A stretch of DNA of 64,000 nucleotides from Elusimicrobiota bacterium (GTDB lineage Bacteria; CG03; SLGR01; PWQF01), in NCBI GenBank assembly GCA_003557485.1, contig PWOI01000179.1:13789-77788 (forward strand). Reading direction: 5' to 3'. Under the pieces are notes generated by a model. It did not search any database. It was given only the letters and a program-made list of their open reading frames with translations, and was not told the DNA's origin. The translations under genes were made by a program, and so were the position numbers. Positions 3,001 to 22,339 of the stretch are shown one piece after another; within the stretch, counting starts at the first letter, position 1, and every line of letters starts with the position of its first letter.

Positions 3001-5793
3001 GCTGGAGACCTGGAAATAGGGGAAGTTACTTCAGGGACTATAGAATGGCTTTGGCCAAGGGCCGTTGAGGAGAATTTTGTCAGGTACGAGCTTTGGTATT
3101 CTTCCGTAAGCGCTGAATCAGTCATTAACAGGTCAACACAAACGGCGCATTTTGAAACATTTGTAGATATCAATAAGACTGATGATATTACAGAAGAACT
3201 TCTTTCCCAAACACGGTACTGGGGGCAGGTTTGGGCTTATGACGGGCTGGGTTATGAAACCTATACATCAACGGTCTCACGAACTACCGGTTATCCTCCA
3301 AGTCTCTGGGTTTCGGCTCAGCCGGATCCAAAACGGGACGGCAGCGGCCACGTTGAATTTGAAGTTAAAATAAATGATCCTGATGGGTACGACAACTGGA
3401 TAAGTGTCAAGTTTTCTACAGATGGTGTTCTATTCCATAATGCCCACATAGGTCAAATAACAGATAAGGACGGAATACAGCGCACACCCTATAACATTGA
3501 GGAATACCAGATAAGCGGTATTCCTACAAAAGAAGGTGAGGACCTTATTACCAATACTCTGGTGATACGCTGGGATTCGAAAGACCAGCTTCCGGGTCAT
3601 ACATACGGATTGGATGGGCAGAATCACGAAAATGTCTATCTGCGTATAACTCCTTTTGATGGTTATTCAACAGGTGAAAGCACGCAGACCCAGGCCGTGC
3701 GAATAGATAATTCCAGGCCCGAACTTATAGTTTTTGATGATCCTGATCCTCTTATTAAAAGTTATAGTTGGTATAGTCACGATGATAGTGAATTAACGCT
3801 TTATTTTCATGGCGAATACGGCGAGCAAGGTGAATTTTTGTATGTGAGTACCGCATCTGTTGATTTTTCAAAAATTATGGTTTCAACAGGTACCGGACAG
3901 CCAGGGCAGTATATAGATCTTGAAGGTTCTGATGTTGAATTCTCGTTATGCGGAGATTATGTTCATATTACAATAACCGATACACACAGAAACTGGATTG
4001 CAAGACGTGATGGGGAGGGGAAGAGAGAAAATGTTTTTCTCAGGCTTTTATCCGGTGCTGTTGTTGACAGTTACGGTAATCCCAATATAGAGGAAGAACA
4101 GGTTAATTTTCACTGGATTGATAAAAGTGATCCAGTTTATCGATCTAATTACCTGACTTGGTATCCTGCCTGGTATTCGTATCCTTTTGATACTTTACCT
4201 CAGCTTACGACAGCTACCTATGAAATTATAGGAGGGGATATCAAGCTTAAACTGGAATTTGATGAGTATATGGATGTGCGCAGTTTTAGGGATACTGATT
4301 TAAGTTCAATAGTTATTTATGCGACATCACCATTTGACAGCAGGGATCTTTCTCATGATGAGAATATAACTGTTTTAACAGAGGAAAGTGATTCAAAGAT
4401 AATTGAATTTGACATACCTACGGGATTTCATCTGCTGATATGGGATTTTCAGGACGGAAATTTGTTTCTTTCCATTCCTGAAGAAAGCGACCTTAGGGAT
4501 TTATCAGGAAATCATTTGCTTGAGATTTCAACTGATGGTTCCCGCAGGATAGAAACACCATCGGAAGAAGATGCGCCGACTGTCAGTACGCAGACTGTTT
4601 CTCCGAAACCCGGAGAATATAATGTGTCAAAGACAACAAGTATTTATGTTGGATTCAGTACTTTTCTTGTTGATGACCCCCCGGAGAGAAAAAGTCCCAG
4701 GGAAAGTATAAATATCCGTCAGATTGAAGGGCCTACAGGCGAAAAATTAAGTAATGAAATATCGCCCGAAATAATAGTATACTGTAGAGAAGACAAACTT
4801 CTTGAATTTGTTCCTTCGAAACCCTTTCCGGGAAATTCCCTGATTGAAGTTACCATTGATGGGAATGAGATCTCTAATTTTTTTGGGGAACATATGGAGG
4901 AGGATTTTATATGGAGATTCAGGACGCAGTTGGATAGAGGGAAAGATAATCTTATAAGAAGCCCTTCGGGCATAGTTGAAATACTTGTTCCCGCTGGTCA
5001 GTTTGTATCAGACGGCGTAATAAATTTTACTGAAGGAATACCGTCCAAAGATCCCCATGATAAGGTATCAATAGATGCCTACAATGAGGCAGTAAGAAAA
5101 GAGAGATCTTGGGGTAACCCTTATAAATACCCTATAGAGGAGTTGAGCTTTGAGGTTCTTTTTTCAACTGATAGGAATAATCATTTTGACAGGGTTGCAT
5201 TCACGGAGAATGCGCAGATAACTATAAACTACTCAACGGTTATAATAAGCGGCTTAACGAAAACAGGAACCTGGGACTATATTCGTTCTGATTCAAAAGA
5301 TTACCGGCACAGTCCTCCTGTCGCTGAAAAGACTTTGCGAATCTATTACCTGGATGAGGACTCCCGGATGTGGCGCCCTCTTGCCTCGGAAGTAGATACG
5401 GACGAAAAAACCATTACGGCACCTATGAGGCATTTTAGTATTTATACTGTTATGGGAGGGAAGAATTACAGTGCCGAAGATGCCTATGCGTATCCGGTTC
5501 CCTATAAACCCTCGGAAATACCAGAAGATTTTAAAGGCGACCCGGCAAGATCCGGAATAAGGTTTACGCGCCTTCCCTCAGAGTGCGAAATAGAAATATA
5601 TACAATTTCAGGCCGGCTGGTAAATTCGTTTACCCATTCTGACGACAATCTGCTTCCGGGAGCGCAGGCAGGAAGCAGTTACTGGTACCCGGTGGAAAAC
5701 AGAAACGGACGGCCTTTAGAGAGCGGTGTTTATATATATGTGGTTGAAAGTTCCGGAAACAGGAAAAGCGGAAAGCTTATGATAATACGATGA
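1..5793 (+). CDS. Giant secreted cell-surface protein (at least 1930 aa): signal-peptide-like N-terminus, about 8 FG-GAP/VCBS beta-propeller repeats, multiple FN3/Ig-like domains, C-terminal type IX secretion (Por) sorting domain. True start is at or slightly upstream of the window edge.
   Basis: Uninterrupted ORF from position 1. Repeated D-x-N/T-G-N-G-x-x-D-hydrophobic motifs (DVTGNGLRDIVIS, DLNSNGSLDLIVLN, DINRNGRIDIV, DLNGNGYLDLIVAN, DINGNGLWDFVIG). C-terminal YPVPYKP...IEIYTISGRLV...SGVYIYVVES...GKLMIIR matches the T9SS C-terminal-domain pattern. A hydrophobic N-terminus precedes AESPP. Confidence 0.85.
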   Translation: MLGLLVFVCFNLYAESPPAPSELSLRVEGTSGSGIPENYAGIENPYPQFSWDSANQEAFQIQLGIGNPANPYNVIWDTEKVISSNSYCYYDGSEPLQSRERYHWRVRIWDNNDPEASPSDWALDSPSFEMNTFIFNRDFEPIGNQSPAFAFGDVTGNGLRDIVISAHTGTTGELIVYGNTGSGEYEAVWSTDSVVSESIALADLNSNGSLDLIVLNRQSAMDSLYIFKNKGDGTFEKIFQRTGDGSRAVAVGDINRNGRIDIVEAFYGVNRVWLNRKENFDFTEYTFGGNKNNNDIALADLNGNGYLDLIVANSGANEVYLNTGQLNSPFENTADWNDESLTPVTSNSLVVIDINGNGLWDFVIGGRIGDDPAFYRLYMNEGDGTFNGDGTTEPYDADSRALTSGDINNNGLLDLADGNLDRDLILINEGGSFDLLNEGFYSNEQTYRAVLADFTGNGKADLLRGFTDSKSKLLIQVPDDLYVPYEPPAPPTDNFAGYYSTSTGKLHLSWGHGESGFTPQSQLSYNIRIGTYPGGGSIISGALGSTDNSGSFWGNIGRSTYVNLQVDPQTFFWSVQAIDGVKNAGQWSVEHIINTPPSIGWAEEGVLLSTCARQWSFDKITDKEYLTFIYHEDRRGLIDIDFRVSDIEGNRVRLTGFSYSTAGADGTWYDVADDSPNLTLSGNQETSNWPDKNGEWFKATGDLETEHMFTFTAADMLRDEGIITGNNYNFKTSSFTVRFTVVDEHDAESEPVVSEYFSVDLKSPSVPGSLITTGTYDKDSITLEFSTPSADDNFKKYMIFYGETPGEAGHYYPGYGTIHADEALLSYDFAGATSTVFEGLNPDTTYYFRIWAYDKFGNYSRQPEEEITVRKTNHPPDIEIYSVYQATDGSGLVYISFTGFDNDVEYSSYSWSQCTFSLGGSTYEMKPSTGNILFSGEPLLFTKDVSTSVFVWDAGQQLAELTALSDNIQVNITLTVFDGRDTGSAGYSNFNVDNKPPYFEAGDLEIGEVTSGTIEWLWPRAVEENFVRYELWYSSVSAESVINRSTQTAHFETFVDINKTDDITEELLSQTRYWGQVWAYDGLGYETYTSTVSRTTGYPPSLWVSAQPDPKRDGSGHVEFEVKINDPDGYDNWISVKFSTDGVLFHNAHIGQITDKDGIQRTPYNIEEYQISGIPTKEGEDLITNTLVIRWDSKDQLPGHTYGLDGQNHENVYLRITPFDGYSTGESTQTQAVRIDNSRPELIVFDDPDPLIKSYSWYSHDDSELTLYFHGEYGEQGEFLYVSTASVDFSKIMVSTGTGQPGQYIDLEGSDVEFSLCGDYVHITITDTHRNWIARRDGEGKRENVFLRLLSGAVVDSYGNPNIEEEQVNFHWIDKSDPVYRSNYLTWYPAWYSYPFDTLPQLTTATYEIIGGDIKLKLEFDEYMDVRSFRDTDLSSIVIYATSPFDSRDLSHDENITVLTEESDSKIIEFDIPTGFHLLIWDFQDGNLFLSIPEESDLRDLSGNHLLEISTDGSRRIETPSEEDAPTVSTQTVSPKPGEYNVSKTTSIYVGFSTFLVDDPPERKSPRESINIRQIEGPTGEKLSNEISPEIIVYCREDKLLEFVPSKPFPGNSLIEVTIDGNEISNFFGEHMEEDFIWRFRTQLDRGKDNLIRSPSGIVEILVPAGQFVSDGVINFTEGIPSKDPHDKVSIDAYNEAVRKERSWGNPYKYPIEELSFEVLFSTDRNNHFDRVAFTENAQITINYSTVIISGLTKTGTWDYIRSDSKDYRHSPPVAEKTLRIYYLDEDSRMWRPLASEVDTDEKTITAPMRHFSIYTVMGGKNYSAEDAYAYPVPYKPSEIPEDFKGDPARSGIRFTRLPSECEIEIYTISGRLVNSFTHSDDNLLPGAQAGSSYWYPVENRNGRPLESGVYIYVVESSGNRKSGKLMIIR

Positions 5794-6857
5794 AAAGGAT
5801 TATTATAAAATCTATTTTTTCTTTTGCCGCAATTATAATAGTTGCAACTGCTCCCGTATTCTCTGTTTTCGGAGACGGGCCCGGAAGCACAGGATATGAT
5901 TTTCTCAATATACCCATAGGTGCGCGCCGCATAGGAATGGCCGCCGGGACAGCCGTAACCGGAGATAGTGACATATACTGGTGGAATCCTGCCGGGGTGG
6001 CATATGTGGAAAGGCCAGTTGTGAGCCTGATGCATAACCAGTTTATAGAAGGCATAAGCCAGCAGAGAGCAGGGTTCACGTTTCCGATGGAGGGCATGTC
6101 GGCGGGCGCTGTTAACCTTACAATGTTGTCGTATGGTGATATAGACGGGTATGACTGGGACGGCAGTCCGACCGGAGGGGTTTCTGCCGGAAGTTACAGT
6201 ATATCCTATACTCAGGCAAAAAGATTTACTTATGATACTGCTGCTGGCTTAAGTTTAAAAGTTATACATGAACAGCTTGATGATGAAAGCGCCTTTGCCG
6301 CAGCTCTTGACGGTGGAGCTTTGTTTGAACCATATGAAGGAGTTTCTGTGGGGCTGGGATGGAGGAACCTCGGCGTAAGCGGTAATTTTATTGATGAGGC
6401 GCCACAGCTTCCTTTATCCTTGTTTTTCGGAGCCGGGTTGAGACTTAATTATTTTACTCTTTTTGTAACAGATATTTCTTATCTGGACGGAGAACTTAAA
6501 TATGGTGCAGGGGTAGAGCTTAGTCTATGGGACTCTTTCTTTTTCCGTGGCGGTTGGGAAAGTTTTGCTGATGTTGATGAGACCTTCCGGCTTGGAGCGG
6601 GCTGGAGCTTCCGGGGAACCGGTATAAATTATGCGTTTGCTCCTTATGATAAGTTCGGCAGTACTCATAGGATGGATATAAGCTTTCAATTTGGTGAGCC
6701 GCCGCTTATAGAGAGAATATACCGCAGGGGGCAGAGTTTATATAGGCAGGAGAAATTTGAAGAAGCCTGGGTTGAATTCAATAAGGTAAAAGCTTTAAAC
6801 TCCAGGTATAAACGCATAAATTACTGGGTTGAAAGAGTGGAGGATGAAATAAAATAA
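5790..6857 (+). CDS. FadL/TodX/PorV-family outer-membrane beta-barrel protein (355 aa), start overlapping the stop of the T9SS cargo gene (ATGA)
   Basis: Signal peptide followed by the N-terminal motif IGARRIGMAAGTAVTGDSDIYWWNPAGVAY, characteristic of the FadL/OMPP1 hatch region (G-x-G-x-A-x-x-A-D-D-A...NPA). Alternating amphipathic beta-strand pattern with a terminal aromatic residue. Position immediately after a T9SS cargo suggests a PorV-like shuttle. Confidence 0.6.
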   Translation: MKRIIIKSIFSFAAIIIVATAPVFSVFGDGPGSTGYDFLNIPIGARRIGMAAGTAVTGDSDIYWWNPAGVAYVERPVVSLMHNQFIEGISQQRAGFTFPMEGMSAGAVNLTMLSYGDIDGYDWDGSPTGGVSAGSYSISYTQAKRFTYDTAAGLSLKVIHEQLDDESAFAAALDGGALFEPYEGVSVGLGWRNLGVSGNFIDEAPQLPLSLFFGAGLRLNYFTLFVTDISYLDGELKYGAGVELSLWDSFFFRGGWESFADVDETFRLGAGWSFRGTGINYAFAPYDKFGSTHRMDISFQFGEPPLIERIYRRGQSLYRQEKFEEAWVEFNKVKALNSRYKRINYWVERVEDEIK

Positions 6858-6944: not shown

Positions 6945-7035
6945 TAATATAGCCTGCTGATAAGGGCAACCGTCGGGTAACCGGCGGCTCGCAAAGTCAC
7001 AGCTCCGGGTTAACCGGAGGGCTGGTCTGCCGGTG
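6945..7035 (+). ncRNA. Candidate c-di-GMP-I (GEMM) riboswitch aptamer
   Basis: AAGGGCAACC, then hairpin CCGTCGG-GTAA-CCGGCGG (GNRA-type loop), then CTCGCAAAGTCACAG, then hairpin CTCCGG-GTTAA-CCGGAG. The flanks AGCC and GGCT can form P1. This matches the two-hairpin GEMM-I architecture with GGCAAACC and GACGCAAAGC-like junction sequences. Confidence 0.45.
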
Positions 7036-7130: not shown

Positions 7131-8726
7131 ATGAACAAACTGTTTAAAAATTTAACGGTTTTTTGCCTGGCCCTTATTTACGCGGCCGCGCTGGGGTGGC
7201 TTTGCGTTGGACTGGTTTTTGCCGGTAGCGGCGGAATGCCTGGCGCTTTTATGTCCTGGGGAGCAGGCGCAAGGTCCCTGGGAATGGGAAAGGCTTTTGT
7301 TTCAATTGCTGATGATGCTACGGCTGCGTACTGGAACCCGGCAGGGCTTGCCGGTATTTCCCGTCCCGAACTGACGGCCCTGCATACAATACTCTGGGGC
7401 GGCACGGTTTATGATTTTATAAGTTATGTTCAGCCTACAGAATTCGGGGGGACCTTCGGATTCAGCGGGACCAGGTTGTTTTTGGGCGGTATCGAGGGAA
7501 GGGACTCAGATAACAGAAAAACTTATGACTTTGAAGACATACAGAGCGCTTACGGCATATCATACGGCCAGCGCGTGCTTGATAATCTTTCTGTAGGAGG
7601 CGGATTTAAACGAATGACGCATACTCTCGATGACCATACAAGCGGAAATTATACTATGGATATTGGAGTTCTCTATTCTCCGATTGACAGTCTCAGCCTC
7701 GGTATGAACCTGCAGAATCTTTTTGCAGTTAAGTTTGGAGATTCCACCGATACCAGCCTTCCTATGAACCTGCGCCTGGGCGCAAGCTATAGACTTTTAA
7801 GGGACAGGCTTCTTCTTGCTACTGATTTAGCCGCTTCGGTTTATGGATGGGATATGGGGCTTCCGGTTTTTATGGGAGCCGAGTACAAGGCTATGGATTT
7901 TCTTGATATAAGGTTTGGTGTCGACAGGGAAGAGATAAATATAGGCTTTGGTCTTACATATCTTGATTACGGGTTGGATTATTCATATGCTGCTCACGAT
8001 TTAGGCGGTTCCCACAGGGTTTCCGCAACTGTAAAACTAGGAAGCTCTGTCGAAGAAGCAAAGCGCCGTACTGCCCGGGAACGTGAAGCTGCCGGCGATG
8101 CAGCCTACAGGGCGGGGTTATTCAGAGAGGCTGCCGGATACTATGAGCGCGCTTATGCAATGGATCCTTCTGACAGGGACCTTGCCCGAAAGCTGAATCT
8201 TCTTACAAGAATAGCGCAGGTCATACCTTCTCGTGATGACGACACTCGCGAGGGTGAGCTTTTAAGGAGAGGGCTTAGGGAATATATAGAAGAAAATAAT
8301 ACCGACCTGCTTCTCCTTACACTGAACCATATGCTGGCCCTTGATCCCGGTGACCGTCAGGCGGAAAACCTGCTGCGACTTATCTCTTCAATAGAGGGTA
8401 TCAGCCAGCCAAGGATAAGGGTTGCTTCCGGAATGAGCCTTTCCGAATACAAGCTGCACAGATCTCTGCAACGGTTTTATGAGGGGGAATATGCCAGGGC
8501 GATAGAACTGGCGCAGGATGTTCTTGTTATTGAACCGCGCAACGCTGAAGCCTACAAAAGAATAGGTTCGGCTTTTTATGCAATAGGCAATGAAGAGAGA
8601 GCAGTAGAAAACTGGGAAGAATCGCTTAGAATTAATCCTGCGGATACCCAGCTGGAAAGGTTTCTTGAGAGAGTTCGTGGAGAAGAGGAGAGTCCTCCGG
8701 TAGAAAATATGTTAGATGAGTTTTAA
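7131..8726 (+). CDS. Outer-membrane FadL/PorV-like beta-barrel fused to a C-terminal TPR-repeat domain (531 aa)
   Basis: Signal peptide. GARSLGMGKAFVSIADDATAAYWNPAGLAG hatch motif, paralogous to the 5790 gene. Beta-barrel-like region to about residue 310, then about 200 aa of TPR-like helices (AYRAGLFREAAGYYERAYAMDP..., AYKRIGSAFYAIGNEERAVENWEESLRINP). Confidence 0.7.
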   Translation: MNKLFKNLTVFCLALIYAAALGWLCVGLVFAGSGGMPGAFMSWGAGARSLGMGKAFVSIADDATAAYWNPAGLAGISRPELTALHTILWGGTVYDFISYVQPTEFGGTFGFSGTRLFLGGIEGRDSDNRKTYDFEDIQSAYGISYGQRVLDNLSVGGGFKRMTHTLDDHTSGNYTMDIGVLYSPIDSLSLGMNLQNLFAVKFGDSTDTSLPMNLRLGASYRLLRDRLLLATDLAASVYGWDMGLPVFMGAEYKAMDFLDIRFGVDREEINIGFGLTYLDYGLDYSYAAHDLGGSHRVSATVKLGSSVEEAKRRTAREREAAGDAAYRAGLFREAAGYYERAYAMDPSDRDLARKLNLLTRIAQVIPSRDDDTREGELLRRGLREYIEENNTDLLLLTLNHMLALDPGDRQAENLLRLISSIEGISQPRIRVASGMSLSEYKLHRSLQRFYEGEYARAIELAQDVLVIEPRNAEAYKRIGSAFYAIGNEERAVENWEESLRINPADTQLERFLERVRGEEESPPVENMLDEF

Positions 8727-8738
8727 AGGAATCAAAGC

Positions 8739-10646
8739 ATGAATAAAATGATAAAAGTTCTGGTACTTCTTATGGCGCCCCTTTTTCTGGGCGCCTCTGA
8801 TTTTATGGACTATACAACTTTAATGAATCAGAAAATGGAAACCGAGAGGCGCCTTGAAGACCATCTGCAGGGAATTGTTTCCAGAATAGTCGGGGAAGGA
8901 CGTTCCACAGTTTTAGTCAGCGTAAATCTTTCCGACCTGAGCCGCAGCCGTGAAACTGTAGAAGAATGGCTTGAGCGGGGTGAGGATGCCGAAAGGCGGC
9001 TTCCGATGCGGGAAGAATACCTTCCCGGTATACCCCGCAGGGAAGATATGGCAGAAAGAGAAACGGAAGTCGCCGAGCGGGCCGGTGGAAAACGCCTCCA
9101 GGACGTAATAACTCTGCCTTCGGAATTTATAGAGAGTATGCGCATAAGCCTTATACTTGATTCCACTATATCCGAGACTGTAATCGCAACGGTGGAAAAC
9201 GTTATAACCGAGGTTATGGACCTGGATGCAGCCCGGGGCGATCGTTTAACTATACAGACAGTGGATTTTGCGGGTAGAACGGTAGATTTTATGGGTTTCC
9301 TATTTAATCCATATTTTTATGTTATATCCCTGGTACTTATAATTATAACCATACTCGCGCTTTTTCTTTTCGGGCCGCTGAAAAAATTTCTTTTCGCTAC
9401 TTTACAGACGATGAAAGACTTAAAAGGAATGAAGAGCGAAACCGAATACTCAGGAGGCGGGGGCGGGGGCGGGGGCGGATTTGGCATAACGCCGGACGGC
9501 GAAATTGAAATGGAAGAAGAGATAGAAGAAGATGAAGAATTGAAAGAGGGGGAAGAAGCAGATATAGAAGGCGAAGAAGAAGACGAGGAGTTTAAAAAGA
9601 TGACATATATACCGCTTAAGTTTCTGGAAAACAAGGATTTGAAGAAACTGGCTTACCTTTTAAGTTTTGAAAAACCGGAAGTAGGGGCTCTTCTTCTTAA
9701 ATATCTTTCGCCTCCGCGCGCTGCAAAAGTCCTCAGCTCAATTCCGGGAGAAGAAAGAACTATAGGAATAACAAGGGAGATTGTAAAATTTCAGAGAACT
9801 TCTAAGGAGGTCATGCAGAAAATAGATGAGTTTCTTAGCAGAAAAATAGATTACATTGCCGGCGGCGCCGAAAGTCTTGTGGAAATGATTGAAATGATGG
9901 ATGAAGAAAAAAGAGAGCAGCTCCTAAACCAGATTTCTTCTGAGGATCCTGAATTTGCCGAAAAAATTAAAAAGCGTATTTTCAGTTTTGAAAATATTGT
10001 AAATATGGATGACCCGTCCATACAGACACTAATACAGGAAATGGAGACTGCCGACCTTGGCGCAGCCCTTAAAAATGTATCTGAAGAAGTAAGAAACAAA
10101 TTTGTTTCCAATATGAGCGAAGGTGCGGCTGCTCTTTTAAAAGAGGAAATAGAATTTGGAAAGAAAATGACCGAGGAGCAGATAAAACAGAAACAAATGG
10201 AAGTTGTCGCAAAAATAAAAGATCTGGAGACGTCCGGCTCAATAGCACCCGTGACCGGCGCATCCAAAGAGGAATTATGGGTGGAAGAGCTGGGTGAGGG
10301 AGAAAAAGAAGGAGTTCTTGAGGAAATTATAAAGGCGGCCCAGGAAGCTTACGATAAGAAACAGGAACTTGAAGCTGCTGAGGCTGCCGGCCGTCAGGAT
10401 GATGAAGCTGCATTTGAAAGCTACCGTAAAGGTTTGGAACTCTATAAACACCAGGATTACGATAATGCAATAAAAGAGTTTAATAAATCCATTGCCTCCA
10501 ATCCATCCCTGTGGCAGAGCTATCAATATATAGGTTCCTGCTATCTTGCGCTCGATAATCAGGATGGAGCTAAAAAAGCCTACCGAAAAGCCCTTGAGCT
10601 TAATCCGTCAAACGAGCAGCTCAGGCAATGGTTGGAAAGTCATTGA
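8739..10646 (+). CDS. Membrane-anchored FliG-like protein (635 aa): signal/TM N-terminus, internal TM helix, poly-Gly and acidic linker, FliG middle/C-terminal-like domain, C-terminal TPR repeats
   Basis: Residues about 290-500 align with the FliG M/C pattern (KIKKRIFSFENIVNMDDPSIQTLIQEMETADLGAALKNVSEEVRNKFVSNMSEGAAALLKEEIEFGKKMTEEQIKQKQMEVVAKIKDLETSGSI versus FliG F-x-F-E-D-I...DDRAIQ...L-A-L-K-G-A-S-E-E...NMS-x-R-A-A-E-L-L-R-E-D...EEAQ-x-x-I...EEGEI). Hydrophobic segment FYVISLVLIIITILALFLFGPL. GGGGGGGGGFG and an E-rich run. TPRs at the end. Confidence 0.7.
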   Translation: MNKMIKVLVLLMAPLFLGASDFMDYTTLMNQKMETERRLEDHLQGIVSRIVGEGRSTVLVSVNLSDLSRSRETVEEWLERGEDAERRLPMREEYLPGIPRREDMAERETEVAERAGGKRLQDVITLPSEFIESMRISLILDSTISETVIATVENVITEVMDLDAARGDRLTIQTVDFAGRTVDFMGFLFNPYFYVISLVLIIITILALFLFGPLKKFLFATLQTMKDLKGMKSETEYSGGGGGGGGGFGITPDGEIEMEEEIEEDEELKEGEEADIEGEEEDEEFKKMTYIPLKFLENKDLKKLAYLLSFEKPEVGALLLKYLSPPRAAKVLSSIPGEERTIGITREIVKFQRTSKEVMQKIDEFLSRKIDYIAGGAESLVEMIEMMDEEKREQLLNQISSEDPEFAEKIKKRIFSFENIVNMDDPSIQTLIQEMETADLGAALKNVSEEVRNKFVSNMSEGAAALLKEEIEFGKKMTEEQIKQKQMEVVAKIKDLETSGSIAPVTGASKEELWVEELGEGEKEGVLEEIIKAAQEAYDKKQELEAAEAAGRQDDEAAFESYRKGLELYKHQDYDNAIKEFNKSIASNPSLWQSYQYIGSCYLALDNQDGAKKAYRKALELNPSNEQLRQWLESH

Positions 10647-10709: not shown

Positions 10710-13700
10710 ATGAATCCTGAAAACAACCAAAATCATAATAAAGGGCAGGGACTTCCCGGACCGCCTCCGCCTCCCTTTTCGGGAGATGCCGGGAAGAATC
10801 CTTCGCCCGGAATACCGGATATGCCGCCAATTCCCGGCTCTGCGCCACCCCCTCAGTCTATTGATGATGTTTTTACTCCTCAGGACCCCGGCATGGCAAA
10901 AGAAAAAAAACGTCCTTCTGAGAGAGAGAAACAGATTGAAGAAGAAATTTCCAGGCTGGACAGCCGTATGGAAAAAGAACGGCTTCAGCTGATGGAAAGG
11001 CTTAAGGAAAAAGAAAACGAAAACCTACGCCTGCAGGAACAGTTTCTTGAAAAAGAAAAAGAGGATGCCCGCCGTAAAAAGGAAGAGTTTGATAGATTGA
11101 AAGAAAAGCTTCATGAACAGTTTGTCGAAAAGGAAAATAAACTTAAAGAGGAAAGAGAACAGTGGCGCAGAGAGCTTGACGAAATAAGAAAAGAAAACAG
11201 AAGCAGACTTGCCCTTGAGCAGACGCAGAACCAGATCCGCATAGAGGCCCAGCAGCAGGCTCGCGAAGAATTTCAGCAACAGATGAAAGAAATGAAAAAG
11301 GAGCTTGAAAATGCCCGCCGCCGCGCTTACGAAGAGGCAATTAAACACAAGGAAGAAGAGAAAAATTCCATTAAGGTAGAGCAGGCCCTTAAAGAGGTCC
11401 TCCAATCAACTTCAATGAGCCAGAAAGCCGAGCAGGTTGAAAAGGAAAAAGAAAAACTCCGCGAAGAACTTTATCATCTTGAAAAAGAACTGGCATCCCA
11501 GAAAATTAATATGACTCGCAAGCTGCAGGAGAGCGAGAATTTAAGAGACAATATCAGGCTTGACTATCATAATAGGATCCGTGAAAGCCGGAGTCAGTAT
11601 GAAAGTAAAATTGCAGAGTTGAGAGAGACTGCTTCCGAGCTTGGCAATAAACTCTGGCAGGCCCGGAACAGCTATGAGAACAAAAAGGAGCTGTGGGAAG
11701 AAAGGGTCCGGGAAAATATTCAGGAAAAGGAAAATCTTACACTGCAGTACCAGAAACAGATAAGCGAACTCAGACTTGAATATGAACAGAAAATTACCGA
11801 TGCGTTAAGCGCAAAAGAATCTGCAGAAAACAGGTATTGGGGAATTAAGGAAAAATTTGATGAGCAAACGGTTGAGCTTAATTCGCGTATTAAAGAACTT
11901 GAAAAAGAGAAAGACCTTATAGAAAAAGAATACGGAATGAAAGTCGCCTCTCTTGAAAGCGCCCTTAATGAAGAGAAAGCCGAACTTGCTGCCCAGAAAA
12001 AGATAAGCGAGGAAAGACTTAACCGAATTAACGATGAACTTCACGCAAAGGAGAACAGGTATAAGGAAAAAATAAGCGATATAGAAATAAATTATTCCGA
12101 AAAAATCCAGAATATAAAAGAAAAATATAAATCCGGCCTTTCTGAAAATGAAAGAGAAATAGAAAAGCTTAAGGCGCTTCTGAAGGAAAGCCGTGAGAAA
12201 TTATCACAGAATTCCGGAGGATCTCACCGGGATTTTGAAAACAGCAAAAAAGAGGTAGAAGAAGCCCGCCGTCTAATGGAGAAGGAAAAGAACAGGTTCA
12301 ATTTCCGGCTCAGAGAAATAGAGAATGATTATGAAAAGCGTCTCTCTGAACTTAAAGTTAAAAACAGCCGTCTTGAATCAAGGATATCAGCCCTTGAAGA
12401 AAAAAGAGAGACCTCTATAGATAAATATAACGACAAGATAGAAGAACTCAACGGAAAAATAAATGAACTTAAAATTGAAAACGCAGCTTTACAGGGAGAT
12501 TTACTGAAAACCGAGAGGCAGATTGAGAGTTCCGACAGAGCTTTAGAGGATATGGCCCGCAAAAATGCCGAAATTCACCACCGCCTTGTCAGCAGCCGAA
12601 AAGAAAATGATGAGGACATTTACCGGTTGAGAGAAGAAATAAATTCTCTGCGCAGGGAAAAAACCGAAGCTCTTCTAAGGATTGAGAACGAGCATTCCAG
12701 GGAATCGGAACTCTATGAGAACCAGCTTCTTCAGGCGCGCAGGGCAACAGAGGATCTCAGGCGCGAAAAAGACCGGCAGATAGATTCAATTAAACAGCAG
12801 TTTGATAATTACAGAAAGAACTTTCAGTGGCTTAAACAGGAGTGGCAGCAGCAAAAAGAAGAACTCCGGGAAAATTTCAGCGTGAAGGAAAAGGGATATG
12901 AAAATGAGATAAAACAGCTTGAATCGGCTCTGAGCGAAGTGCAGAAACTGAAAACACATTCTGAAAGTGAACTTAACGCTGAAATTGAAGCTGTCAGGAA
13001 GGAAAAACAATCCCTGCAGGAAAAATTTGAATCAAAAATTCAGCAGATGAGGGATGAATTTGCAGCTAAAAAGACGGATCTTTATGAAAAACTGAATGAA
13101 AAACAAAGGAATATAAGCGAATTGGAAGCCCGTCTGGATACAGAAAGAGTTGACTATACAGCCCGGATCCAGCAAGCGGAAAAAGAGAAAACTGCTGTTT
13201 TGCGGGAAAAAGAGATCCTTGATGTAGAAACTGAAAAACTGAAAAAAGAGACTCATAGCCTCCAGCTCAGGTACGAAAGAGAAGCAGAAGAAAACCGTAA
13301 ACTGAGAGAGGCTCTTCATCATGGTGAAAAGAAGTACAGAAACGAAATAGGAAAGCTTAAGGAATACTACGAGAAAAACCTTGAATCCCTTCGCAGAAGG
13401 CAGGATGGTATTGCAAATGTAGAGTATGACAGCCTTGATACTGAGAATAGAGAATTGAAGCATCAGCTTAAGTCTGCTGAATCTGAGATAAGCCGGCTTA
13501 AGTCACAGCTTGTAGAAAAAGAAGAGGCTCAGGAAAAAATACAGGCTGAAATAGATAAATATACAGCAGAAATTGATGACCTTACACAGGAATTGAAGCA
13601 AAGACAGTCTGTTATTGAACAACTTGAACGGAAAGTTTCTGATATTGATGATTCGCAGGCTGTGCAGGAGGATATAAGCCAGCTTAAAAAAGAAAACAGC

Positions 13701-14618
13701 GAATTAACCGGACATTTGGAAGAATCATTGCGGGAAAGGGATATTCTTAAAGAGAAAAATGCCAGCCTTTTGTCGGAAAATGAAGCTAAAAAGCAGCAAA
13801 TAGAACAGCTTTCCCTTAAACTTGAGGAAAAAGAAAGCCAAATAGGCCAGCTTCAAGGTAAAATTCCCGGAGAAGATATTATATCCGGTAAGAATGAGGA
13901 AATAGCAGAACTTGAAGATGAAATTAAAGAGCTAAGGTCCGCCCTTTCGGATTCTGAATCTAAAATAAAGCAGCTTTCAGAGGCTGCATCCCGTGCGGAT
14001 TCTCTTATGGACAGCAAAAAAGAGATAGAAGAACTTTCCGCTTCACTTGCGGAAAAACATTTGAAAGAAATTGAAGAGAAAGAAAGAATTATAGAAGAAT
14101 TAAGAAAAGAACTTGAGGAGTCCCTTGAAGAACTTGAAGAGAGGGAGCAGCAGCCTGTGACCGATGGGCTTAAATCTGAAAGGCTGCAGGTTCTTGCCGG
14201 GGAGAATGCTGAACTCAAGGAAAAAATAAGAGAATTGGAGTCTCAGCTTGAGATAGGAATGGAGCAGCTTCGCAGTGAGAAGATGGTTCCGGAATATGAT
14301 ACAGAAAAAACAGACGAAAAAATAAAGCAAATCAATGAAAAATGGAGGAAAAAATGGGCCGGCCGCGAACAGAAAGTAAAAGATTTCATATCACAGGCAA
14401 AAGCCAGGCACAGCCAGCTTAAAGACAAGCTTCAGGTTGCTCTTGAAGACCAGAAAATTCTTTCACAGCTTGCAGAAAAGGAAAAACAACAGAAACAGAA
14501 GCTTGCTTCAGAGCAGGCCGAACTTATAAAAGAGCTTCAGGAAAGCAACAGGTCTTTTGTCAGTAAAATACTTGCCAAACTGAAAAAAGGCGGGCCTAAA
14601 GGCGTACTCATCCTTTAA
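10710..14618 (+). CDS. Giant coiled-coil protein (1302 aa): Pro-rich N-terminus followed by about 1200 aa of E/K/R/Q-rich heptad-like sequence
   Basis: Continuous ORF with a strong purine-rich coding strand. N-terminal PGPPPPPFSGD...PPIPGSAPPP. The remainder is low-complexity, charged and predicted alpha-helical. No enzymatic motif recognised. Confidence 0.7.
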   Translation: MNPENNQNHNKGQGLPGPPPPPFSGDAGKNPSPGIPDMPPIPGSAPPPQSIDDVFTPQDPGMAKEKKRPSEREKQIEEEISRLDSRMEKERLQLMERLKEKENENLRLQEQFLEKEKEDARRKKEEFDRLKEKLHEQFVEKENKLKEEREQWRRELDEIRKENRSRLALEQTQNQIRIEAQQQAREEFQQQMKEMKKELENARRRAYEEAIKHKEEEKNSIKVEQALKEVLQSTSMSQKAEQVEKEKEKLREELYHLEKELASQKINMTRKLQESENLRDNIRLDYHNRIRESRSQYESKIAELRETASELGNKLWQARNSYENKKELWEERVRENIQEKENLTLQYQKQISELRLEYEQKITDALSAKESAENRYWGIKEKFDEQTVELNSRIKELEKEKDLIEKEYGMKVASLESALNEEKAELAAQKKISEERLNRINDELHAKENRYKEKISDIEINYSEKIQNIKEKYKSGLSENEREIEKLKALLKESREKLSQNSGGSHRDFENSKKEVEEARRLMEKEKNRFNFRLREIENDYEKRLSELKVKNSRLESRISALEEKRETSIDKYNDKIEELNGKINELKIENAALQGDLLKTERQIESSDRALEDMARKNAEIHHRLVSSRKENDEDIYRLREEINSLRREKTEALLRIENEHSRESELYENQLLQARRATEDLRREKDRQIDSIKQQFDNYRKNFQWLKQEWQQQKEELRENFSVKEKGYENEIKQLESALSEVQKLKTHSESELNAEIEAVRKEKQSLQEKFESKIQQMRDEFAAKKTDLYEKLNEKQRNISELEARLDTERVDYTARIQQAEKEKTAVLREKEILDVETEKLKKETHSLQLRYEREAEENRKLREALHHGEKKYRNEIGKLKEYYEKNLESLRRRQDGIANVEYDSLDTENRELKHQLKSAESEISRLKSQLVEKEEAQEKIQAEIDKYTAEIDDLTQELKQRQSVIEQLERKVSDIDDSQAVQEDISQLKKENSELTGHLEESLRERDILKEKNASLLSENEAKKQQIEQLSLKLEEKESQIGQLQGKIPGEDIISGKNEEIAELEDEIKELRSALSDSESKIKQLSEAASRADSLMDSKKEIEELSASLAEKHLKEIEEKERIIEELRKELEESLEELEEREQQPVTDGLKSERLQVLAGENAELKEKIRELESQLEIGMEQLRSEKMVPEYDTEKTDEKIKQINEKWRKKWAGREQKVKDFISQAKARHSQLKDKLQVALEDQKILSQLAEKEKQQKQKLASEQAELIKELQESNRSFVSKILAKLKKGGPKGVLIL

Positions 14619-14622
14619 AAAA

Positions 14623-14850
14623 ATGATAAATGTGACCAAATTAAACGGCGATGGTATAATCCTTAACGCCGAACTTATAGAAACGGTTGAATCGCGCCCC
14701 GACACTCTTATAACCCTTACTACTGGAAATAAAATTATGGTAAAGGAAAAAGTTGAGGATATAATAAAAAGGGTTGAGGATTATAAAAGGCAGGTAAATA
14801 TGCTTACCCGAGAGAAGCTTAGTGCGTTGCTCAGGGAAGAAGAGGAATAA
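14623..14850 (+). CDS. flbD: FlbD-family flagellar-type protein (75 aa)
   Basis: MINVTKLNGDGIILNAELIETVESRPDTLITLTTGNKIMVKEKVEDIIKRVEDYKRQV matches the FlbD pattern (I-x-L-T-R-L-N-G-x-x-F-x-L-N-A-D-L-I-E-T-I-E-x-T-P-D-T-V-I-T-L-x-N-G-K-K-Y-x-V-K-E). Conserved flbD-motA-motB order. Confidence 0.7.
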   Translation: MINVTKLNGDGIILNAELIETVESRPDTLITLTTGNKIMVKEKVEDIIKRVEDYKRQVNMLTREKLSALLREEEE

Positions 14851-14853
14851 ATT

Positions 14854-15711
14854 ATGGACCTGACGACAGTAATAGGGCTTTCCGGAGGCATTATAATAGT
14901 TTTTACAGCGGTTGCTCTCCGTGGTGGTATGGCAGGCCTGCAGGGGTTTCTGGATATGCCTTCCGCTATGATTACTTACGGGGGAACCTTTGCCGCTCTT
15001 ATGGTGAACTATCCGATAGATAAAGTTGTAAAAGCCTTTAAAGTCGTCAAAAAAGTATTTACCGAACAGCAGGACGACCCTAACGATTATATTGAAAAAT
15101 TCCGCCAGCTGATTATCAAAGCCTCAAAACAGGGAGTTCTTTCCCTTGAGGAAGATATAAAAAAAATGGACAACGAATTTTTAAGAAATGGAGTTAAAAT
15201 GGTCATGGACGGCCAGAGCCAGGAGCATATAGAAGAAGAAATGGAGACTGAACTGGCATTTACCAGGGAAAGGCATAAAATAGGCCAGGAAATTTTTGTG
15301 ACACTTGGCACTTACTCCCCTGCGTTCGGTATGATAGGGACTATTATGGGTCTTATCCTGATGCTAGCCGACCTTCAGGATACTGCCCAGATAGCTGCCG
15401 GTATGGCGGTAGCTCTATTGACAACCTTTTACGGCGCCCTTGGCGCTTATCTTATTTTTCTTCCCATCGCCGGCAAGCTGAAAAGGCGTTCGGAAGAGGA
15501 GCTTTTTCTTAAAAGTGTCATAACCAGAGGCGTCATGTCCCTTCATGCGGGAGAGGTTCCTTCAATAGCGGTAGCTAAACTGCGCGCGTATATACCGAGA
15601 TCCTCTTTTATGGAGCCTTCCGGCACAAAAAAAGGGAAGGCTGACGAAAAAGAAGAAGGAAACAAGAAGAAAAAAACAAAGGTAAAATACCGTAAAAAGA
15701 AGAAGAAATGA
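14854..15711 (+). CDS. motA: MotA/TolQ/ExbB-family proton-channel stator subunit (MotA-like, 285 aa) with Lys-rich C-terminal tail
   Basis: MDLTTVIGLSGGIIIVFTAVAL...ITYGGTFAALMV N-terminal TM pair. C-terminal TM pair with the LGTYSPAFGMIGTIMGLI...LLTTFYGALGAYLIFLPIAGKL signature. Tail KKGKADEKEEGNKKKKTKVKYRKKKKK. Confidence 0.85.
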   Translation: MDLTTVIGLSGGIIIVFTAVALRGGMAGLQGFLDMPSAMITYGGTFAALMVNYPIDKVVKAFKVVKKVFTEQQDDPNDYIEKFRQLIIKASKQGVLSLEEDIKKMDNEFLRNGVKMVMDGQSQEHIEEEMETELAFTRERHKIGQEIFVTLGTYSPAFGMIGTIMGLILMLADLQDTAQIAAGMAVALLTTFYGALGAYLIFLPIAGKLKRRSEEELFLKSVITRGVMSLHAGEVPSIAVAKLRAYIPRSSFMEPSGTKKGKADEKEEGNKKKKTKVKYRKKKKK

Positions 15712-16562
15712 GCAAAATTGCCGCATTTAAGAGGAGTCTTCCTAAAGACGAGGGGGATATTGAGGTCGGTAAAGGCTCCCCCCCGTGGATGACTACTTAT
15801 GGAGACCTTGTTACCCAGCTCCTGATTTTTTTTGTTATGATGTTTGCGCTTGCCGCCACGCTCAATGAGCTGCAGTTGATAAGCATAAAACGCAGAATTG
15901 AGAACTACGCATACCAGAACCAGCTTGGCCATCTTATAATGCTCGATATTAACCCCAAAGGATTGGTAATAACCCTTAGCGAAAAAATGATGTTTGATTC
16001 CGGCCAGGCCGAGATATATGAGGATGCAAAAGCCATTCTCTCCGCAATAGCAGGTGAAATAATAGATGTACCCAATCCTGTCAGAATTGAAGGTCATACG
16101 GATAGCGTACCCATCAGTACAGATAGGTTTCCTTCCAACTGGGAACTGTCAACAGCCCGGGCGACAAATGTAGCAAGATATCTTGTAGAGAACCTGGAAT
16201 TTCCGCCTGACCGGATAGCTGCCGGGGGGTACAGTAAATACCATCCTGCGGTAGGAACGGAAATTGAAGATGAAATATTCAACTACAAGTTAAAAGTAAG
16301 AGAGGTTCCACAGCATTATTCCCTTGAGCTCAGGCGCGCATCCACTCCGGAGGAGGAAGACCTGGTTATGTTGAGAATAAGAGAAGAACAGCTTGAGATA
16401 CAACGGGAAATGCAGGGAATAATTATGGAGCATATACGTATTGCAAACCTTGATGCGGACAGAAGAGCCCGGAACAGGAGGGTTGACATAATAGTGGAGA
16501 GGATAGGCACTACTGTTGAAAGAAGAACGGATATCGCGGCGCCTGTTGCCGTTTCTCATTAG
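15708..16562 (+). CDS. motB: MotB-like stator subunit with OmpA-type peptidoglycan-binding domain (284 aa)
   Basis: PPWMTTYGDLVTQLLIFFVMMFALAA plug/TM motif. IEGHTDSVPI...FPSNWELSTARATNVARYLV...NRRVDIIV OmpA-like domain. Start overlaps the motA stop (ATGA). Confidence 0.85.
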   Translation: MSKIAAFKRSLPKDEGDIEVGKGSPPWMTTYGDLVTQLLIFFVMMFALAATLNELQLISIKRRIENYAYQNQLGHLIMLDINPKGLVITLSEKMMFDSGQAEIYEDAKAILSAIAGEIIDVPNPVRIEGHTDSVPISTDRFPSNWELSTARATNVARYLVENLEFPPDRIAAGGYSKYHPAVGTEIEDEIFNYKLKVREVPQHYSLELRRASTPEEEDLVMLRIREEQLEIQREMQGIIMEHIRIANLDADRRARNRRVDIIVERIGTTVERRTDIAAPVAVSH

Positions 16563-16720: not shown

Positions 16721-16726
16721 ATTTAG

Positions 16727-16754
16727 GGCCGCCTTTAAGGCGGCTCTTTTTTTT
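16727..16754 (+). terminator. Attenuator terminator 2: GGCCGCC-tttaa-GGCGGCT stem-loop plus U8, ending at the trpE ATG. The right arm contains the trpE SD-like AAGG.
   Basis: ggccgcc tttaa ggcggct followed by c tttttttt (16747-16754). ATG at 16755. Confidence 0.55.
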
Positions 16755-18209
16755 ATGCAAACAAAAATTATACCAGTAAGAGAAAAAATTGTAGCGGATT
16801 TTATAACCCCGGTTTCCGGGTATATAAGAATGGGAAGCGGAGATTATTCGTTTCTGCTGGAGTCTGCTGAAAAAGGAAAGGCCGGCAGGTTTTCTTTCGT
16901 AGGGTTCTGCCCCCGGCGGGTTTATGAACTCTACACTGACCGGGTAGATATTATGGAGAGGGCACAGGAGAATCCGAATGTTCTGACGCCTAAAAAGACC
17001 GTAAGAAGCAGTGACCCTCTCGCAGTAATTCAGGAAGTTCAGGACAGGTTTAAAGTTGAGGATAACGGCAGCCTTCCTCCTTTCTGCGGCGGGCTTGTGG
17101 GATACTCTTCATATGAGATGATTGAAACTTTTGAAAACCTTTGCCTTGAAAACCGGCCGGCTGCCGGGGAACCGCTCGGTGTTTTCATCTTTAGTGATGA
17201 AATAATCGCATTTGACCACCTTCACAATACCGCTGAGATAATAAAACTCGTAAGTGAAGAGGAGGGGGAGGATAAGGCCCGCCTACGCATACTGCAGATT
17301 AAGAACAGATTATTGAATACTCAGGTCCAAATAAAACCGATGGCGATGGCGGGCGAGGGCCGCCCTGAATATAAATCAAATTTTACAGAGAGTGAGTTTA
17401 AAAAGGGTGTTAACAAAATAAAAGAAGAAATTATGTCCGGGGAAATAATACAGGGGGTTTTCTCCCAGAGGCTCACAGCCGACGCGCCGGATGACGTTTT
17501 TGACTGCTACAGGGCTTTAAGGGTAGTAAACCCCTCTCCTTATATGTTTTACCTTAAACTTAAGGATACTGTCCTGTGCGGCTCTTCACCTGAAGTTATG
17601 GTAAAGTCTTCCGGCGGAAAAGCATGCCTGAAGCCGATAGCCGGCACGCGTAAAAGGAGCCTTTGCAGCAACGAGGAAAAAGAACTCAAGGAGGATCTAA
17701 AAAAAGACCCTAAAGAAATAGCGGAGCATATAATGCTGGTTGACCTTGGAAGAAATGATCTCGGGAAAGTCTGCAGTCCGGGCAGCGTTAAGGTTAAAAA
17801 TCTTATGGCGGTGGAAAAGTATTCGCACGTAATGCATATGGTAACAGAGATAGAGGGAAACCTGGCTGAAGGGATAGGGAATACGGATGTTTTTAAAGCA
17901 TGTTTTCCCGCCGGCACGGTGAGCGGCGCGCCCAAACTCAGGGCAATGCAGATAATAGACAGTCTGGAAAAAACACCGCGCGGGCCTTATGCGGGCGCAG
18001 TAGGTTATTTTTCTTTTACAGGTGATATGGATACCTGCATTGCAATAAGGACTATGGTGGTAAAGGGAAAGAAAGTTTTTATACAGGCCGGAGCGGGGAT
18101 TGTTGCGGATTCGGTCCCGGAGAAAGAATATATCGAAACTATGAATAAAGCCGGCGCTCTGCTACAGGCCCTTTATATGGCCGGCAGCGGGAAGGAAGAG
18201 AATTTATGA
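16755..18209 (+). CDS. trpE: Anthranilate synthase component I
   Basis: 484 aa. Chorismate-binding family motifs (FLLES...GRFSF, GTRKR, LVDLGRNDLGKV, GAVGYF). Confidence 0.9.
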   Translation: MQTKIIPVREKIVADFITPVSGYIRMGSGDYSFLLESAEKGKAGRFSFVGFCPRRVYELYTDRVDIMERAQENPNVLTPKKTVRSSDPLAVIQEVQDRFKVEDNGSLPPFCGGLVGYSSYEMIETFENLCLENRPAAGEPLGVFIFSDEIIAFDHLHNTAEIIKLVSEEEGEDKARLRILQIKNRLLNTQVQIKPMAMAGEGRPEYKSNFTESEFKKGVNKIKEEIMSGEIIQGVFSQRLTADAPDDVFDCYRALRVVNPSPYMFYLKLKDTVLCGSSPEVMVKSSGGKACLKPIAGTRKRSLCSNEEKELKEDLKKDPKEIAEHIMLVDLGRNDLGKVCSPGSVKVKNLMAVEKYSHVMHMVTEIEGNLAEGIGNTDVFKACFPAGTVSGAPKLRAMQIIDSLEKTPRGPYAGAVGYFSFTGDMDTCIAIRTMVVKGKKVFIQAGAGIVADSVPEKEYIETMNKAGALLQALYMAGSGKEENL

Positions 18210-18233
18210 TTCACTGCCGGCAAAGGAGTTGAA

Positions 18234-22321: not shown

Positions 22322-22339
22322 AGAAAGTTGTGACATGAA

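Follow-up and report, generated by a model that had tools for sequence, protein, structure and literature searches.

A FliF/FliG fusion in a conserved MotAB operon with a cyclic di-GMP riboswitch suggests an undescribed flagellar-type motor in Elusimicrobiota

A stretch of 64,000 nucleotides from an Elusimicrobiota bacterium (GenBank assembly GCA_003557485.1, contig PWOI01000179.1, positions 13,789 to 77,788 of the forward strand; hereafter the window) encodes a protein in which a domain resembling the third ring-building motif (RBM3) of the MS-ring protein FliF is joined, in a single polypeptide, to the middle and C-terminal domains of the rotor protein FliG and to C-terminal tetratricopeptide repeats (TPR). 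The presence of this FliF/FliG fusion in a conserved MotAB operon controlled by cyclic di-GMP (c-di-GMP), in bacteria reported to be without flagella, points to a motor of the flagellar type that has not been described before and whose load would not be a flagellum. On balance, and with a slight lean in its favor, the protein is read here as a one-polypeptide “mini rotor” of flagellar basal-body origin, whose ring would be turned by MotAB and whose output would go to partners in the cell envelope.

The FliG–MotAB pair is regarded as a hallmark of the flagellum, while the core described here appears to be stripped of the export and axial parts and wired to outer-membrane and surface partners. 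Free-living Elusimicrobiota have been noted in a passing remark to have no flagellar structural genes and yet to keep motAB, flbD, and fliG; the fusion, its FliF part, the cassette, and the riboswitch are not described there (bioRxiv 10.1101/2022.07.08.499144). A phylogeny of MotAB from 2025 mentions neither Elusimicrobia nor fused partners of the FliF/FliG type (PMC12505986). Nothing relevant on non-flagellar FliG, on FliG-like proteins, or on FliG associated with a c-di-GMP riboswitch was found in the literature searched, which also contained no report of a type IX secretion system (T9SS) in Elusimicrobiota. An original prediction, made from the DNA letters, had called the combination an arrangement not described for flagella, and no description of it turned up in the same literature.

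Domain architecture of the fused rotor

The original prediction placed a module similar to the FliG middle and C-terminal domains within a membrane-anchored, TPR-tailed protein, and the open reading frame (ORF) that it gave, 8739–10646, proved exact (Table 1). The module is made of genuine FliG domains, as Pfam FliG_M matched residues 303–371 (E = 3.1e-14) and FliG_C residues 398–502 (E = 3.7e-31), both far above the Pfam cutoffs, and the family profile matched the crystal structure of FliG-MC from T. maritima (1lkv) with E = 1.8e-57 over 222 columns. MgtE_N, named beforehand as the top match that would speak against a FliG identity if FliG_C were missing, was found only at E = 1.1e-7, far behind FliG_C, and an identity as an MgtE_N-like helical repeat was rejected. 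No Pfam match to FliG_N was obtained in the fused rotor, whose residues 1–290 comprise a signal peptide, the RBM3-like domain, a transmembrane (TM) helix, and a linker; the FliG equivalog model TIGR00207 was matched only at profile positions 112–332, with 146.9 bits vs. a cutoff of 226.7.

The remaining elements of the predicted architecture were likewise recovered, namely, a hydrophobic signal at residues ~5–19, a second hydrophobic helix at residues ~188–214 (191–211 in the AlphaFold2 model), a Gly9 run at residues 240–248 (nt 9456–9482) encoded by 3.8 copies of GGCGGG, a Glu-rich stretch at residues ~249–288 with a net charge of −20 over residues 236–288, and the C-terminal TPR at residues ~555–635. 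The linker has a predicted local distance difference test score (pLDDT) below 50 over residues 231–294 and is variable in length and sequence across the family, being acidic in every case. Phase variation at the GGCGGG repeat was rejected, as the repeat is in frame and only the length of the Gly run differs among homologs; antisense ORFs of 83–138 amino acids within the gene were also rejected, having no support. The predicted topology consists of a periplasmic RBM3, a single TM segment, and a cytoplasmic FliG_MC–TPR part.

Overlooked in the original prediction was the conserved periplasmic domain at residues ~20–185, which is homologous to FliF RBM3. Pfam YscJ_FliF_C matched 11 of 14 N-termini of the family with a best E-value of 1.8e-9, and the N-terminal part of the window protein taken alone scored 24.4 bits vs. 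a cutoff of 23.8. When the N-terminal 235 residues were used in a profile search of the PDB, only the FliFs of several species and the RBM3-type ring former SpoIIIAG were matched, in a collinear alignment that equates query residues 38–89 with Salmonella FliF 238–289 (RBM3a) and residues ~152–224 with FliF ~407–495 (RBM3b and TM2). A direct comparison with a canonical FliF alignment by hhalign (E = 3.2e-5, probability 72.6%) spanned RBM3a, the collar position, and RBM3b; in it, the LPG(I/V)P loop of the family was aligned with the conserved FliF collar motif GGVPG. The family N-domain and FliF also have in common an RGD motif before the last strand. The LPGIP motif is invariant in three family alignments and near-invariant in a wide alignment at 22% identity. 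RBM1 and RBM2 (SctJ-like) are absent, the rotor having no N-terminal YscJ_FliF match and only ~165 periplasmic residues, and the full beta-collar is not present in it, its position being taken by an insert of ~60 residues modeled with low confidence.

Four independent lines of evidence, each with a modest sequence score, agree in identifying the N-domain as a FliF RBM3 followed by the equivalent of TM2. As judged from its sequence, the protein is a natural fusion of FliF (RBM3–TM2) to FliG (M–C) with a TPR tail. It is neither a FliG nor a FliF ortholog but a fused derivative of both, because the defining features of each are missing. The non-covalent joint between the FliF tail and FliG_N is dispensable in this protein, because RBM3–TM is joined covalently through the linker to FliG_M and FliG_C; the joint is absent and is replaced by an acidic flexible linker.

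Functional residues of the rotor and the stator

The residues of both partners were mapped to Escherichia coli numbering with the K-12 genes. The equivalent of FliG K264 is K445 in the window protein and Lys or Arg across the family, while the equivalents of D288/D289 are E469 and E470, a Glu pair that is kept across the family and also occurs in the canonical deltaproteobacterial FliGs that served as controls. Of the EHPQR motif, through which FliG binds FliM, E125 and P127 remain, and H126, Q128, and R160 are replaced family-wide, which is consistent with there being no FliM. On the stator side, conservation extends to the catalytic Asp equivalent to MotB D32 and to the equivalents of MotA P173 and P222. 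The window MotA retains E98, which is Gln in 6 of 12 relatives, and the position of MotA R90 holds Ser in the window with Lys at the next position, a basic residue being always found at 90 or 91 in the relatives. The conservation of the FliG charged ridge, proposed as a check by the original prediction, was divided: the K264 and D288/D289 equivalents are retained, and R281 and R297 are lost. To judge from this pattern, constraint probably acts on the ion channel and on the acidic half of the interface, and the other half appears to have been remodeled.

A basic C-terminal tail of MotA (15619–15711; +12 in the window, +11 to +25 in its clade, with +25 in L007) co-occurs with the acidic linker of the rotor (9444–9602; −20 in the window, −12 to −26 in the clade), and the distant clade (L010–L013 and L021) shows the two charges only weakly. 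The tail and the linker may form an electrostatic tether, their co-occurrence being suggestive and not phylogenetically independent.

The original prediction proposed a stationary partner of MotA, which is probably wrong, as the anchor corresponds to RBM3 and TM2 of the rotating MS-ring and MotB keeps the peptidoglycan-binding OmpA domain and the catalytic Asp. According to this explanation, the protein would be a membrane-tethered docking partner and MotAB would act as a Ton/Tol-like force transducer or as a regulated ion channel. The loss of the canonical R281/E98 charge pair fits such a role, a coiled-coil scaffold could be bound through the TPR and the acidic linker and an outer-membrane barrel through the periplasmic domain, and the oppositely charged MotA tail and rotor linker could serve as a static tether. 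It is nevertheless considered unlikely, since the anchor is specifically that of the rotating ring, the acidic pair of the torque helix is invariant, and FlbD, known from flagellar stators, is retained; SwrD/FlbD raises stator power in Bacillus subtilis. MotB also retains its plug in addition to the peptidoglycan-binding domain, and with both partners fixed no work would be possible. A rotor is preferred to a stationary partner because a MotB fixed to the wall would leave nothing free to move.

Conservation of the cassette

A scan of one genome per species yielded 21 loci encoding relatives of the rotor. The close family consists of ~19 full-length homologs of 630–660 amino acids that are conserved end to end, and those with a label are from Elusimicrobia or Elusimicrobiota; the window protein shares 88% identity with that of an Elusimicrobia metagenome-assembled genome (L001). 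The order of genes for a PorV-type barrel with TPR (PorV-TPR), the fusion, a coiled-coil protein, in some cases FlbD, MotA, and MotB is kept in every sufficiently long locus, even at 26%–33% identity of the fusion. Linkage of motAB to the fused rotor was seen in all 14 related loci of sufficient length and in all five contexts from two divergent subfamilies, which supports the functional tie to MotAB that the original prediction had drawn. Its description of the gene as next to motAB holds for the shared strand and the apparent operon and is inexact as to adjacency, since the gene for the 1302-amino acid coiled-coil protein and flbD intervene.

The PorV-TPR gene lies directly 5' of the fused rotor gene in 18 of 18 loci with upstream sequence and also in two loci with kinase-fused rotors (L030 and L031). 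A coiled-coil counterpart of 500–1650 amino acids with conserved ends is found between the rotor gene and flbD in related loci, and FlbD occupies the same position in L010, L013, L018, and L019. A c-di-GMP-I riboswitch or its GGC variant is located directly 5' of the PorV-TPR gene in the window and in 15 of 17 related loci (L002, L004–L013, L016, L018, L019, and L021), the c-di-GMP-I-GGC variant being found in the more distant ones. In most loci whose upstream sequence is available, the cassette follows a giant ORF with a T9SS-type C-terminal sorting domain (CTD) (L002, L004, L006, L007, L012, L013, L016, L018, L021, L030, and L031), and scores at or above the TIGR04183 cutoff were obtained for 5 of 7 such proteins from related loci. 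An envelope function is suggested because the PorV-TPR barrel and the giant T9SS-CTD proteins are constantly associated with the rotor. In L019, a match to a group II intron domain (RF00029, 48.7 bits) is found at 37–110 (+), 5' of the related cassette.

The same conservation bears on the idea that the genes are vestiges of an ancestral flagellum, decaying and without function. R281, R297, and the EHPQR motif have been lost as might be expected of such vestiges, but the reading frames are intact, the motifs are invariant across orthologs at 26%–90% identity, the gene order and a dedicated riboswitch are conserved, and several paralogous cassettes and 340 clusters exist, so that decay is scarcely credible.

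TPR-less and kinase-fused relatives

A search with the N-domain profile against 1.84 billion representative proteins retrieved 340 clusters (50% identity) at E ≤ 1e-3, of which 115 remained at E ≤ 1e-10. The N-domain was fused to FliG_MC in 130 of 149 new representatives, with 89 architectures without TPR, 25 with TPR, and 6 with an N-terminal extension; the other 19 entries contain only the N-domain, are short, and are probably fragments. The original prediction had taken the fusion as unique, which does not hold, as its family numbers at least 340 clusters, among which it forms a single branch, and a FliF–FliG fusion of another type is known in Chlamydiaceae.

In the extended form, a histidine kinase (HisKA and HATPase_c) stands ahead of the RBM3–TM–FliG_MC core (P0048 and P0069), and these kinase-fused rotors make up a paralogous Elusimicrobiota family of their own with ~70 clusters. 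Their cassette encodes a giant CTD protein, a PorV-like protein with TPR, the kinase-rotor, a protein of no assigned function (one with weak coiled-coil matches), MotA, and MotB, and has no riboswitch upstream in L030 or L031. In L030, a c-di-GMP-I aptamer is present at 16144–16238 (+), just 3' of motB and before a gene for a FlgO/CsgG-like lipoprotein. The TPR-less subfamily (L032, L033, and L034, with one member labeled Nitrospirae) has the order rotor, MotA, MotB, MotB, and TPR protein, and its cassettes adjoin genes for multihaem cytochromes, RCC1-repeat proteins, and pilin-like or type II secretion-like components. FlbD is absent from both the kinase-fused and the TPR-less cassettes. The invariant unit is the fused rotor with MotAB, because the kinase-fused and TPR-less forms again precede motA–motB; the accessories vary by lineage.

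The kinase-fused paralogs raise the alternative of a signaling device, in which a MotAB-driven load or ion flux on a FliG ring would be read as a surface-sensing or mechanosensing signal. The size of that paralog family, the response regulators and GGDEF proteins encoded nearby, and the tie of the cassette to c-di-GMP are in keeping with it. The window protein itself carries no signaling domain, however, and the bare rotor core accounts for most of the family (89 of 149 representatives); the kinase may merely regulate the motor, and the conserved outer-membrane and giant surface-protein partners suggest a mechanical function in the envelope. Signaling as the primary role is thus improbable.

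Genes of the window

All genes of the window are on the + strand, and the features of the cassette and of the rotor gene are collected in Table 1.

Table 1. Features of the fused rotor gene, its cassette, and the kinase-fused relatives; coordinates refer to the window unless a locus is named.
Feature	Coordinates	Strand	Description
Giant surface protein, truncated at window start	1..5793	+	FG-GAP_3 (E = 3e-28), fn3, Big_5 = Ig-like (Pfam)
PorV/PorQ-family outer-membrane beta-barrel, first copy	5790..6857	+	Without TPR; NCBIfam PorV_fam 111.9 bits, cutoff 90
c-di-GMP-I riboswitch aptamer	6955..7034	+	Rfam RF01051 (GEMM-I), 43.8 bits vs. gathering score 35; operon leader
PorV-family barrel with C-terminal TPR	7131..8726	+	Barrel at residues ~40–302, TPR ~220 amino acids; PorV_fam 115.1 bits, cutoff 90; TPR_2 E = 5e-10
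Fused rotor gene	8739..10646	+	635 amino acids; signal peptide, FliF-RBM3-like domain, TM, acidic linker, FliG_M, FliG_C, TPR
Periplasmic FliF RBM3-like ring-building domain	8799..9293	+	Residues 21–185; alpha-beta, insert, beta-alpha-beta
LPGIP loop motif	9021..9035	+	Residues 95–99; within the low-confidence insert that replaces the FliF beta-collar
TM helix	9300..9380	+	Residues ~188–214, invariant FLFGPL; FliF TM2 equivalent, aligned with the FliF TM2 region in PDB profile matches
Gly9 run and Glu-rich disordered linker	9456..9602	+	To residue 288; in the place of the FliF C-tail/FliG_N joint
FliG middle domain	9645..9851	+	Residues 303–371; EHPQR motif cut down to E311..P313
FliG C-terminal domain	9930..10244	+	Residues 398–502; torque helix 10110–10157 = residues 458–473
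C-terminal TPR repeats	10401..10643	+	Residues ~555–635; predicted cytoplasmic; Pfam TPR_2/TPR_1 E ~1e-8 to 1e-9; pLDDT ~90
Coiled-coil protein	10710..14618	+	1302 amino acids; no signal peptide; weak SMC/Rad50-type coiled-coil matches only
FlbD, small stator-associated flagellar protein	14623..14850	+	75 amino acids; Pfam FlbD E = 6.9e-26
MotA/PomA-type stator A subunit	14854..15711	+	NCBIfam MotP/PomA/MotA E = 1e-60 to 1e-69; short PomA-like cytoplasmic domain; basic C-tail
MotB-type stator B subunit	15708..16562	+	Pfam MotB_plug E = 5e-11, OmpA-like peptidoglycan-binding domain E = 4e-15; plug/TM
Intrinsic-terminator-like hairpin and T-run	16725..16757	+	10-bp stem (16725–16747), 7 GC pairs, then TTTTTTTT; ends operon before trpE
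Kinase-fused rotor genes	L030 10001–12505; L031 10001–12481		HisKA+HATPase_c N-terminal to RBM3–TM–FliG_MC

The C-terminal 200 amino acids of the giant protein at the window start match TIGR04183 Por_Secre_tail, the T9SS type-A sorting domain, with 24.7 bits vs. a cutoff of 23. An ortholog of the first PorV/PorQ barrel (5790–6857) is also encoded in L007; neither this barrel nor the one at 7131–8726 reaches the PorV or PorQ equivalog cutoffs of NCBIfam, and the rules of beta-barrel topology indicate that the TPR domain of the second is probably periplasmic. The predicted fold of the riboswitch leader is far more stable than that of shuffled controls (z = −5.8), and the 5' strand of the aptamer has an alternative pairing with nt ~7098–7111; no canonical terminator was found in the expression platform by a simple terminator scan. 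Both ends of the coiled-coil protein are conserved, the N-terminus as a polyproline motif (GxPGPPPPPFSG-like) and the last residues as (K)G(V/I)L(I/L)L-COOH; an amphipathic stretch precedes the latter, and this C-terminus is a candidate ligand of the rotor TPR tail or a candidate membrane-targeting helix. The window MotA contains the MotA_ExbB channel domain (Pfam), and the best stator equivalog scores were below their cutoffs (MotP, 233 bits vs. 394; MotS, 129 bits vs. 264).

Directly after the cassette lies a complete trp operon, trpE-D-G-C-F-B-A (16755–23131, +). Beyond the cassette, the annotated part of the window (to ~39.6 kb) holds housekeeping genes and no further flagellar gene. A phage or mobile-element origin was rejected on account of the housekeeping flanks (trp operon, accD, folC-like, tatC, and trmD). 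Two ORFs on the + strand, 25838–27838 (666 amino acids) and 35241–37181 (646 amino acids), gave no Pfam match at E ≤ 1e-5. The ORF for ribosomal protein S16 at 31331–32032 (+) encodes 233 amino acids vs. the usual ~80–90, with the S16 match confined to residues 10–67 and followed by a long C-terminal extension. No other flagellar gene was found in the flanks of ~26 related loci.

These flanks weigh on the explanation that the protein serves, much like the second FliG of spirochaetes, as an accessory or alternative part of the rotor in a true flagellum whose genes lie elsewhere in the genome. The FliF-like and FliG-like parts, FlbD, MotA, and MotB are all flagellar in type, which fits such a role. 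The lack of FliG_N, of the FliF C-tail, and of RBM1 and RBM2, together with the lost FliM-binding motif and the missing flagellar neighbors in the window and in those flanks, speaks to the contrary, and structural flagellar genes have been reported absent in the free-living Elusimicrobiota that carry motAB, flbD, and fliG (bioRxiv 10.1101/2022.07.08.499144), so that an accessory role is highly improbable.

Proposed mechanism

In the mini-rotor model, RBM3 would bring the subunits together as an inner-membrane ring, as it does in FliF and SpoIIIAG, and ion-driven stators of the MotA5B2 type, anchored to peptidoglycan and helped by FlbD, would engage the conserved acidic ridge on the torque helix of FliG_C and make the ring rotate. 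Such a motor would work without an export gate, rod, hook, filament, or FliM/FliN switch. Its output on the periplasmic side would pass to the PorV-family outer-membrane barrel with TPR and to the giant surface proteins with T9SS-type sorting domains, and on the cytoplasmic side to the TPR tail of the rotor and the long coiled-coil protein, which together would form a scaffold possibly substituting for the C-ring. The most likely task would be gliding or attachment, with the motor moving, exporting, or tensioning a giant adhesin at the cell surface; this role, proposed by analogy with GldLM, PorV, and SprB of Bacteroidota, is the weakest step of the proposal. Synthesis of the motor would be switched by c-di-GMP through the riboswitch, which would suit a transition between motile and attached states. 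We infer ring assembly, rotation, the contacts with the partners, and the biological output.

Several observations weigh against this model. The sequence evidence for RBM3 is individually weak, with PDB matches at E = 1e-3 to 7e-3 and an hhalign probability of 73%; the structural models have a modest pLDDT of 64–67 with a disordered insert in place of the collar; and ring formation is deduced from homology alone. The interface between rotor and stator appears to differ from the canonical one, since the position of FliG R281 is G462 in the window and always Gly, Ala, or Glu in the family, the position of R297 is T478 and always Thr or Ser, neither being Arg in any member, and MotA E98 is often Gln. 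A ring tied to both an outer-membrane protein and a cytoplasmic coiled coil might not rotate freely. The giant CTD proteins are linked to the cassette by adjacency only and lie upstream of the riboswitch in most loci, and the absence of flagellar genes applies to the 64-kb window and the locus flanks rather than to whole genomes.

A broader reading is held more tentatively, at somewhat less than an even chance. It states that these genes encode a new class of non-flagellar rotary machine, in which a fusion ring turned by MotAB would move, secrete, or tension T9SS-type adhesins through the PorV-like protein; that such a machine would have been exapted from the flagellar motor or else be a relative, still extant, of the motor's pre-flagellar ancestor; and that the family would be widespread in Elusimicrobiota and would extend, without the TPR, to uncultured bacteria of Nitrospirae type and others. 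Should the ring turn, the machine would be a minimal and compact motor of the flagellar type, in which torque generation could be studied in the absence of the C-ring switch, and it would offer a candidate mechanism for how members of a poorly understood phylum move or adhere. It would also bear on the origin of the flagellum, namely, on whether a ring and a stator could function before secretion and a filament. The c-di-GMP riboswitch and the kinase-fused paralogs provide a direct and testable tie of second-messenger signaling to a motor.

Comparison with known systems

The likeness to the flagellar core lies in an RBM3-type domain followed by a TM segment, in FliG_M and FliG_C with the acidic pair and the Lys of the torque helix, in MotA with P173, P222, and, in the window, E98, in MotB with D32, the plug, and the OmpA domain, and in FlbD beside motAB, as in spirochaete and Firmicute operons. 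In contrast to the flagellum, FliF and FliG are here one polypeptide without RBM1, RBM2, most of the beta-collar, the FliF C-tail, and FliG_N; EHPQR, R281, and R297 are lost, and no genes for FliM/N, export, rod, hook, or filament are nearby. The cassette in turn adds the TPR tail, the PorV-family barrel, the coiled coil, the giant CTD proteins, and the c-di-GMP riboswitch.

A natural FliF–FliG fusion is known from Chlamydiaceae, with RBM2, one further RBM, and only FliG_M (Bergeron, 2016, PeerJ, PMC4768692), and the flagellar genes listed for Chlamydia are only FliF, FliL, and FlhA (PMC4768692). It resembles the present protein as a natural single protein of non-flagellated bacteria in which the periplasmic region of FliF is shortened, two TM segments are present, and the cytoplasmic domain is FliG-like. 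It differs in being ~330 amino acids long with RBM2 plus an unassigned RBM and FliG_M only; it lacks the FliG_C torque helix and the TPR, is thought to be linked to an injectisome, and is not paired with MotAB.

Salmonella mutants with a full-length FliF–FliG fusion remain motile. Engineered FliF–FliG fusions are described as assembling MS-ring-like rings (PMC10941966; PMC11481574; PMC6079021). The likeness of the Salmonella and Vibrio constructs to the present protein is that a covalent FliF–FliG protein forms rings, which indicates that a fused rotor is feasible. These fusions, unlike the natural one, are laboratory constructs that join full-length FliF to full-length FliG inside a complete flagellum.

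With the T9SS and gliding machinery of Bacteroidota, the cassette shares giant type-A CTD proteins, barrels of the PorV/PorQ family, and an ion-driven motor of the 5:2 superfamily alongside. No component of the T9SS core (PorK/N, PorL/M = GldLM, and SprA/Sov) turned up in the annotated window (~1–39.6 kb) or in the annotated flanks of the loci; the motor here is MotAB with a predicted FliF/FliG ring and not GldLM, and the PorV-like protein bears TPR.

In the Agl-Glt system of Myxococcus, an inner-membrane motor of the MotAB/TolQR type, TPR proteins, outer-membrane barrels, and an AglZ-like coiled coil move adhesion sites. The cassette resembles this set in encoding such a motor beside TPR-bearing proteins, barrels of the outer membrane, and an extended cytoplasmic coiled coil, whereas Agl-Glt is not known to contain a FliG or FliF element or to be related in sequence past the motor superfamily. 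Set beside all of these, the cassette is conservatively regarded as a variant of the known flagellar-type rotor–stator motor, which would become a new motor class if rotation and an envelope output were demonstrated.

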